From assembly GCF_045037415.1 (NCBI RefSeq), contig NZ_CP173438.1: a stretch of 64,000 nucleotides of DNA; one strand, written 5' to 3'. The notes below the pieces were generated by a model. That model was not told the origin of the DNA, did no database searches, and saw nothing but the letters and a program-made list of their open reading frames with translations. This DNA is from Escherichia coli. Lineage in GTDB: Bacteria > Pseudomonadota > Gammaproteobacteria > Enterobacterales > Enterobacteriaceae. Both the position numbers and the translations under genes were made by a program. Below, piece by piece: positions 33,114 through 34,163 of the stretch; position 1 is the stretch's first letter; every line of letters starts with the position of its first letter.

Positions 33114-34163
33114 ATGGCACAAGTCATTAATACCAACAGCCTCTCGCTGATCACTCAGAACAACATCAACAAAAACCAGTCTGCGCTGTCGACTTCTATC
33201 GAGCGCCTCTCTTCTGGTCTGCGTATTAACAGCGCTAAAGATGACGCCGCGGGCCAGGCGATTGCTAACCGCTTTACTTCTAACATCAAAGGTCTGACTC
33301 AGGCCGCACGTAACGCCAACGACGGTATTTCTCTGGCGCAGACGGCTGAAGGCGCGCTGTCAGAGATTAACAACAACTTGCAGCGTATTCGTGAACTGAC
33401 CGTTCAGGCCTCTACCGGCACGAACTCTGATTCCGACCTGTCTTCTATTCAGGACGAAATCAAATCCCGTCTTGATGAAATTGACCGTGTATCTGGTCAG
33501 ACCCAGTTCAACGGTGTGAACGTGCTGTCGAAAAACGATTCGATGAAGATTCAGATTGGTGCCAATGATAACCAGACGATCAGCATTGGCTTGCAACAAA
33601 TCGACAGTACCACTTTGAATCTGAAAGGATTTACCGTGTCCGGCATGGCGGATTTCAGCGCGGCGAAACTGACGGCTGCTGATGGTACAGCAATTGCTGC
33701 TGCGGATGTCAAGGATGCTGGGGGTAAACAAGTCAATTTACTGTCTTACACTGACACCGCGTCTAACAGTACTAAATATGCGGTCGTTGATTCTGCAACC
33801 GGTAAATACATGGAAGCCACTGTAGTCATTACCGGTACGGCGGCGGCGGTAACTGTTGGTGCAGCGGAAGTGGCGGGAGCCGCTACAGCCGATCCGTTAA
33901 AAGCACTGGATGCCGCAATCGCTAAAGTCGACAAATTCCGCTCCTCCCTCGGTGCCGTTCAAAACCGTCTGGATTCTGCGGTCACCAACCTGAACAACAC
34001 CACCACCAACCTGTCTGAAGCGCAGTCCCGTATTCAGGACGCCGACTATGCGACCGAAGTGTCCAACATGTCGAAAGCGCAGATTATCCAGCAGGCGGGC
34101 AACTCCGTGCTGTCTAAAGCCAACCAGGTACCGCAGCAAGTTCTGTCTCTGTTACAAGGCTAA
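33114..34163 (+). CDS. fliC: Flagellin FliC (short central variable region)
   Basis: Conserved N-terminus MAQVINTNSLSLITQNNINKNQSALS and C-terminus ...NQVPQQVLSLLQG; 349 aa. Confidence 0.95.
   Translation: MAQVINTNSLSLITQNNINKNQSALSTSIERLSSGLRINSAKDDAAGQAIANRFTSNIKGLTQAARNANDGISLAQTAEGALSEINNNLQRIRELTVQASTGTNSDSDLSSIQDEIKSRLDEIDRVSGQTQFNGVNVLSKNDSMKIQIGANDNQTISIGLQQIDSTTLNLKGFTVSGMADFSAAKLTAADGTAIAAADVKDAGGKQVNLLSYTDTASNSTKYAVVDSATGKYMEATVVITGTAAAVTVGAAEVAGAATADPLKALDAAIAKVDKFRSSLGAVQNRLDSAVTNLNNTTTNLSEAQSRIQDADYATEVSNMSKAQIIQQAGNSVLSKANQVPQQVLSLLQG

Follow-up and report, generated by a model that had tools for sequence, protein, structure and literature searches.

A short, intact Escherichia coli fliC gene that types in silico as H4 of the U9-41 genotype

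Introduction

The Escherichia coli DNA analysed here (a stretch of 64,000 nucleotides, referred to below as 'the window') carries at its flagellar locus a flagellin gene whose product is only 349 residues long. A preliminary description of the window had recorded this length, together with conserved termini and a compact, surface-exposed middle of relevance to the H-antigen type. Such a gene raises several questions: whether it is the principal flagellin gene or a secondary one, whether its small size marks an allele in its own right or the remains of a longer gene, and which flagellar antigen it specifies. The evidence described below leads, with very little reservation, to the conclusion that the reading frame at 33114..34163 is the intact, functional structural gene for the H4 flagellin, of which the flagellar filament in E. 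coli is composed. As such it is an ordinary and already known gene, which matches the published H4 flagellin throughout.

An intact flagellin gene at the fliC locus

The open reading frame listing of the window contains a 1050-bp frame on the plus strand (33114..34163, stop codon included) that opens with ATG and encodes a 349-residue product, starting MAQVINTNSL, ending SLLQG and having a calculated mass of 36.29 kDa; the length originally reported is thereby upheld. Pfam places Flagellin_N (PF00669) at residues 5-141 (E 4e-47; 160 bits against a cut-off of 26.6) and Flagellin_C (PF00700) at residues 262-347 (E 3e-32; 111 bits against a cut-off of 23), and the match to the NCBIfam model NF005294 ('FliC/FljB family flagellin') reaches 497 bits, where the cut-off is 387; these values are well past the level of chance.

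The gene can be divided into three segments, all on the plus strand. Alignment and an AlphaFold2 model delimit a conserved N-terminal D0/D1 segment (codons 1-173, 33114..33632); sequence searches and the same model mark out a hypervariable central region, the putative H4-specific surface domain (codons 174-257, 33633..33884); and Pfam, alignment and model together define a conserved C-terminal D1/D0 segment (codons 258-349, 33885..34160). The conserved motif LQRIRELTVQ, found inside codons 1-173, corresponds to the TLR5 contact site.

The surroundings of the gene are those of canonical E. coli fliC. Upstream, fliT, fliS and fliD lie on the minus strand, with fliD (filament cap, 471 aa, 31451..32866) as the divergent neighbour; downstream on the plus strand are fliA (sigma-28, 34327..35046), which follows directly and is the expected driver of fliC, and then fliZ, tcyJ and dcyD. 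This order, divergent from fliDST and upstream of fliAZ, agrees with the RefSeq annotation of identical DNA, and many E. coli chromosomes match a 24-kb stretch around fliC at 100% identity. Over its full 64 kb, the window matches the chromosome of E. coli strain 4/1-1 at 100.0% / 99.99% identity.

The size of the product (about 350 residues or less) falls within the range of lateral and polar flagellins, and the Flag-2 locus is also present in many ST131 strains (PMC4637896), observations that might favour the identification of the gene as a lateral (Flag-2, LafA-type) or other secondary flagellin. That identification is given no credence here, however, because the gene occupies the fliC position, with fliD on one side and fliA on the other, because its product scores only 213 and 132 bits with the NCBIfam LafA models, far short of the 365 and 440 required, but clears the threshold of the FliC/FljB model, and because the two ends of the protein differ very little from those of the E. 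coli FliC proteins H48 and H7. The gene is thus treated below as fliC.

Assignment to an H type

The 1050-bp gene matches the fliC of hundreds of complete E. coli genomes with 100% DNA identity, and named strains among them include O104:H4 (FDAARGOS_348/349), O25b:H4-ST131 and O2:K1:H4. When the central 261 bp were used as the query in a sensitive blastn search of 5426 complete E. coli genomes, 760 (~14%) were matched, all at 95% identity or more and 743 of them at 99% or more, while the sequence was absent from the remaining 4666. The middle is thus confined to a single allele group. This search is equivalent to the comparison of the central region against H types that the preliminary description had proposed, and only genomes of the H4 group were matched. 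According to Beutin et al. (2005; PMC548302), fliC-H4 is 1050 bp long and encodes 349 residues and a protein of 36.3 kDa in every H4 strain sequenced in that study, six in all, so that the length and mass reported there equal those of the coding sequence at 33114..34163.

The primers of the same authors were then used for in-silico PCR and restriction fragment analysis, with Table 3 of PMC548302 serving as the basis for comparison. The fliC-5/fliC-6 pair gives a product of 1243 bp (33020..34262), and the fliC-1/fliC-2 pair, of which both primers match exactly, gives one of 953 bp (33120..34072). Digestion of the 953-bp product in silico yields fragments of 362/304/104/66/50/29/20/16/2 bp with HhaI, 296/240/225/159/33 bp with HpaII and 429/313/182/29 bp with MboI, and all three sets agree fragment for fragment with the published table for U9-41, the H4 reference strain (PMC548302). 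An exact match is likewise found for the fliC-H4 primers published by Liu et al. (2012), which give a 308-bp product in silico. Among the controls, the allele of strain NCTC9040 yields the published P7d-type HpaII pattern, whereas the patterns of H48, H7 and a 420-residue allele are unrelated, and the H4 flank primers amplify none of the three.

In length, mass, size of both PCR products (1243 and 953 bp) and restriction fragment sets, the window allele is the same as that of U9-41 (O2:K1:H4; GenBank AB028472 / BAA85081), and these tests reveal no difference between the two. From the fragment pattern and the identity to other named H4 strains, we infer that the two genes are probably identical base for base. 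The known variants of H4 (the P7d and P12b types) have the same length and central domain as the window allele and are 97-99% identical to it; the NCTC9040 gene, for example, is 97% identical, differs by 9 amino-acid changes and carries the P7d-type HpaII fragments. An HpaII site that cuts a 273-bp fragment into pieces of 240 and 33 bp is what assigns the window allele to the U9-41 type rather than to P7d. Judged from its sequence, then, the gene is fliC-H4 of the U9-41 genotype, and the early suggestion that the middle bears on H-antigen type can be made specific: the region defines the H type, and that type can be named. NCTC9040 itself gives a 1399-bp product with fliC-5/fliC-6, as compared to 1243 bp in the window, which implies an insertion of ~156 bp between fliC and fliA in that strain relative to the window.

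The H4 flagellin has been studied in several settings. Flagella of type H4 have been produced from cloned fliC-H4 (PMC548302); FliC-H4 has been identified by MALDI-TOF in a band of ~40 kDa (PMC3378880); and the ST131 strain EC958 is H4, with isogenic allele swaps showing that motility with H4 flagella is comparable to that with H1 and H7, in a body of ST131 work that covers motility, adhesion and enhanced induction of IL-10 (PMC4637896).

A strain that carries fliC-H4 need not display it, and a second flagellin locus (flnA for H17, or flkA, fllA or flmA) may override the first. The precedent is the H17 type strain P12b, in which fliC-H4 is silent at the protein level and flnA is present ~20 kb downstream of fliC, between pgsA and yecA (PMC3378880); in the window, the corresponding tRNA-flanked site is occupied by a mobile element. 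Against such masking, fliC is the sole hit in the 64 kb when flagellin serves as a tblastn query at E values up to 10, and the window contains no second flagellin gene even at the tRNA site, on the side of pgsA, where H17 strains carry flnA; the mobile element next to tRNA-Leu is a prophage without a flagellin gene; and the HpaII and MboI patterns are those of U9-41, from which P12b is stated to differ with both enzymes (PMC548302). Flagellin loci elsewhere in the genome could mask H4 expression, and since the search covered the 64-kb window only, masking keeps a small probability, one that we consider very low. Expression of the H4 antigen by the source strain is presumed.

Size of the variable middle

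The boundaries of the variable middle were derived, for every protein compared, from a single alignment of five E. coli flagellins, H4 among them. In H4, residues 1-173 and 258-349 are almost invariant against the other four, in keeping with the conserved termini first described, and residues 174-257 are unalignable or gapped. Measured in this way, the middle comprises ~84 residues in H4, ~155 in the 420-residue allele, ~233 in H48 of K-12 (498 residues) and ~320 in the flagellin of O157:H7 (585 residues), which bears out the initial impression of a compact variable region. H48 of K-12 (PDB 8cxm), H7 (7sn4), H6 (7sn7) and Salmonella FliC (1ucu) all share the D0/D1 core with H4. The longer E. 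coli and Salmonella flagellins also resemble it in locus and promoter elements, and their equivalents of residues 1-173 and 258-349 are almost invariant; the difference lies in their middles, which run to about 230-320 residues, form multi-domain D2/D3 (or larger) outer parts and have no detectable sequence similarity to the 84-residue middle of H4.

In a set of 60 records drawn at even intervals from the 4517 E. coli genomes that matched, no fliC other than this allele is shorter than 1263 bp, and according to Beutin et al. (2005; PMC548302) the internal fliC PCR products of 53 H-type reference strains range from 950 to 2500 bp, with H4 at 953 bp. The 60-genome sample and this range of products together place H4 at the short extreme for the species, and it is the shortest common E. 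coli flagellin.

The 84-residue middle consists of 26% alanine, 13% threonine and 12% valine. The GC content at third codon positions (GC3) is 0.46 in the central region and 0.58 and 0.65 in the flanks, and base composition across fliC displays no striking anomaly; a foreign origin for the middle is accordingly not argued on these grounds.

A gene that is the shortest in the 60-genome sample, and whose middle is rich in alanine, threonine and valine and low in complexity to the eye, might be suspected of being what is left of a longer fliC after decay or internal deletion, with little or no function. Several of the observations above already speak against this suspicion: the frame is intact, both terminal domains are complete, the 1050-bp length is constant in 760 genomes from varied hosts as well as in all six of the Beutin strains, and published H4 strains are motile. 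Two further lines of evidence, drawn from relatives of the middle in other genera and from its predicted fold, bear on the same point.

Short flagellins in other genera

Initial searches with the central region produced little. Used alone as a protein-homology query, it returned only fragments and frameshifted pieces, and a HMMER search with it against all representatives at the 50%-identity level gave 9 hits, a small number that probably reflects the placement of full-length H4-like flagellins under cluster heads with other middles. The large repeat proteins that HMMER also matched (P0009, P0011 and others) were dismissed, as these matches look compositional, being rich in alanine, threonine, valine and glycine. 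One fragment from this search (P0010), however, led to a full-length search for short flagellins, in which proteins of 342-380 residues align to H4 from end to end, the middle included.

These alignable short flagellins come from Pluralibacter gergoviae, Enterobacter hormaechei, E. asburiae, Pantoea species and 'Enterobacteriaceae bacterium FGI 57', and the proteins of P. gergoviae (356 residues), E. hormaechei (358-363), Pantoea eucrina (355) and FGI 57 (349) have the architecture and the core residues of H4. Across genera, the N-terminal segment of H4 is 82-92% identical to those of the other short flagellins and the C-terminal segment 89-99% identical; the middle is 19-76% identical to the equivalent region in short flagellins of other Enterobacterales, and its conserved core, of hydrophobic and aromatic residues, is made up of L209, Y212, Y222, A223, G230 and V246. 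The flagellins of other genera usually differ from H4 in having an insertion of 4-30 residues ahead of the last strand of the middle. A middle that aligns over its full length with the short flagellins of Pluralibacter, Enterobacter and Pantoea, with the core residues kept, is difficult to reconcile with a deletion remnant; the comparison of sequences points instead to an old, maintained domain type.

An E. coli flagellin of 351 residues from outside the window (P0049) has the same sequence as H4 from about residue 230 to its end, while its residues 141-220 are only 38-65% identical to H4 and there resemble the fragment P0010. As far as its sequence goes, the hypervariable region of this protein looks mosaic, which would be unusual, as intermediates between forms of the hypervariable region are reportedly lacking (PMC7018530).

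Predicted structure of the outer domain

An AlphaFold2 model built on the full-length alignment of short flagellins has the flagellin D0/D1 core, and the variable part forms an insert that separates ND1 from CD1. D1 is predicted with confidence and D0 with low confidence, the latter being attributed to modelling of the protein as a free monomer. The N-terminal portion of the model consists of helices at residues 2-100 and 106-129 followed by a beta-hairpin at 142-160, and the C-terminal portion of helices at 261-316 and 321-348; between them, the middle is predicted to form a small beta domain, the strands of which span 199-201, 209-214, 219-225, 232-240 and 243-252. When the domain is modelled by itself, the pLDDT is 84, and a middle that is predicted to fold with such confidence is a further argument against the remnant. 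Taken with the intact frame, the constant length, the alignable relatives and the motility of H4 strains, it leaves a decayed or internally deleted gene as scarcely conceivable, and an intact H4 flagellin gene as the reading carried forward.

In a Foldseek search of the PDB with the full H4 model, all of the top 50 matches are flagellins, and the best (E 2e-26) is an engineered Salmonella FliC, delta(204-292), that lacks D3 (PDB 9iwq). Like H4, that protein has a reduced outer part and still forms filaments; unlike H4, it is an artificial deletion of a protein with both D2 and D3. No PDB sequence that covers the H4 middle was found, and the domain modelled alone gave no significant superposition on any solved flagellin outer domain. 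An assignment to the Salmonella-type D2 outer domain was rejected on the latter basis, and the middle is described here, as modelled, as a single compact outer beta domain that is left unassigned to Salmonella D2.

A more speculative proposal, to which little weight should be attached, is that this compact outer domain is a structurally uncharacterised fold, the minimal size or surface of which might explain an H4-specific host response (the stronger induction of IL-10 by H4 than by H1 or H7; Kakkanat et al. 2015) and might play some part in the success of ST131 and O104:H4. The data behind the first part of that proposal consist only of the conservation of the domain and its lack of a structural neighbour.

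Regulatory signals and proposed working

A sigma-28 (FliA) class-3 promoter-like site, TAAA-N15-GACGATAA, is found at 33011..33037 on the plus strand, 77 nt before the ATG, and departs from the consensus TAAA-N15-GCCGATAA by one mismatch in the -10 element. The same mismatch is present upstream of fliC in K-12, O157:H7 and SEV4, and in an alignment with these three both promoter elements are invariant, while the spacer differs at the H4 locus. Use of this site would be expected from the established flagellar regulon. A Shine-Dalgarno-like AGGA (33102..33105, plus strand), conserved in other alleles, lies 8 nt ahead of the ATG, and an intrinsic terminator-like hairpin of 9 bp (7 of them GC) with a T-run was located by a terminator scan at 34180..34210 on the same strand, 17 nt past the stop codon. 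The putative divergent promoter of fliDST (32911..32937, minus strand) is an exact match to the sigma-28 consensus, where 0.05 matches would be expected by chance. A scan for sigma-70 promoters found nothing relevant near fliC, as would be anticipated for a sigma-28 gene.

From these signals and from established knowledge of the enterobacterial flagellar regulon, the working of the gene may be outlined as follows. [quoted passage not shown] The 84-residue middle (174-257), inserted at the outer tip of D1, would be displayed as a single small surface beta domain bearing the H4-specific epitopes. The 36-kDa mass of the subunit is accounted for by this one small outer domain, in place of the D2 and D3 (or larger) outer parts of longer alleles.

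The cap gene differs as well. The fliD product is 471 residues long in all of the H4-allele strains looked at, 468 in K-12 (1407 bp) and 465 in O157:H7 (1398 bp), and the H4 fliD-fliC intergenic region (32867-33113) has a 19-bp deletion further upstream in addition to the altered promoter spacer. From these differences in fliD length, deletion and spacer, it appears that the cap gene and the intergenic region co-vary with flagellin type.

Other sigma-28-like motifs were noted in the window, each with one mismatch. One, at 16414-16440 on the minus strand, lies just upstream of fliL (15920..16384, minus strand) and is consistent with the known promoter region of fliLMNOPQR. A second, at 35357..35383 (minus strand), is antisense within fliZ and probably occurs by chance. 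The third, TAAA-N15-GCCGATAT at 57810-57836 (minus strand), is upstream of a prophage gene at 56775..57698 (minus strand) that is annotated as an LprI-family lysozyme inhibitor; the GCCGATAT motif could be a chance occurrence, or it could indicate a phage gene wired into the flagellar regulon.

Probable recombination footprint and neighbouring elements

Comparison of positions 27114-40163 of the window with an O104:H4 chromosome (L001) shows a divergence of 0-0.5% from yedE through fliA and of 2-3% from fliZ to sdiA, with a mismatch-free tract of 1350 bp at 32838..34187. On this pattern of divergence, there looks to be a recombination boundary near 35,000-35,100, with the H4 fliC segment and its left flank common to lineages that are otherwise diverged. 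The footprint fits with what is known of E. coli, whose lineages exchange fliC regions horizontally.

Two further elements were noted in the window. A prophage occupies window positions 44214-64000, adjoining a tRNA Gly-Cys-Leu cluster, and its position is the pgsA-side site of the excisable flnA flagellin island in the H17 strain P12b. It contains an integrase (44431..45477, minus strand), a Gp157-family gene, a 738-residue open reading frame (46637..48853, minus strand), a YdaT-family toxin, a replicative helicase (52472..53914), an ImmA/IrrE gene (60662..61150, minus strand) and, at the edge of the window, an antiterminator Q. Between fliE and yedF, at about 23600-26920, is an insertion of foreign or remnant DNA that comprises emrE, ybcL and ybcM (cargo of the DLP12-prophage type), an IS200/IS605 tnpA (25662..26186) and a truncated yedK pseudogene (SOS-response-associated peptidase, about 26492..26917).

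Implications

With fliC-H4 in the window, the strain types in silico as H4, an assignment that aids both the prediction of its serotype and its placement within E. coli lineages; the pandemic O25b:H4-ST131 clone and the O104:H4 strain of the 2011 outbreak share this flagellar type. No new mechanism or family emerges from the analysis, and the absence of an experimental structure for the H4 outer domain makes that domain a subject of modest, specialist interest. For the enterobacteria more generally, H4 represents a natural flagellin with a minimal outer domain, in which one beta domain of ~84 residues, as predicted, atop D1 is enough for a working filament.
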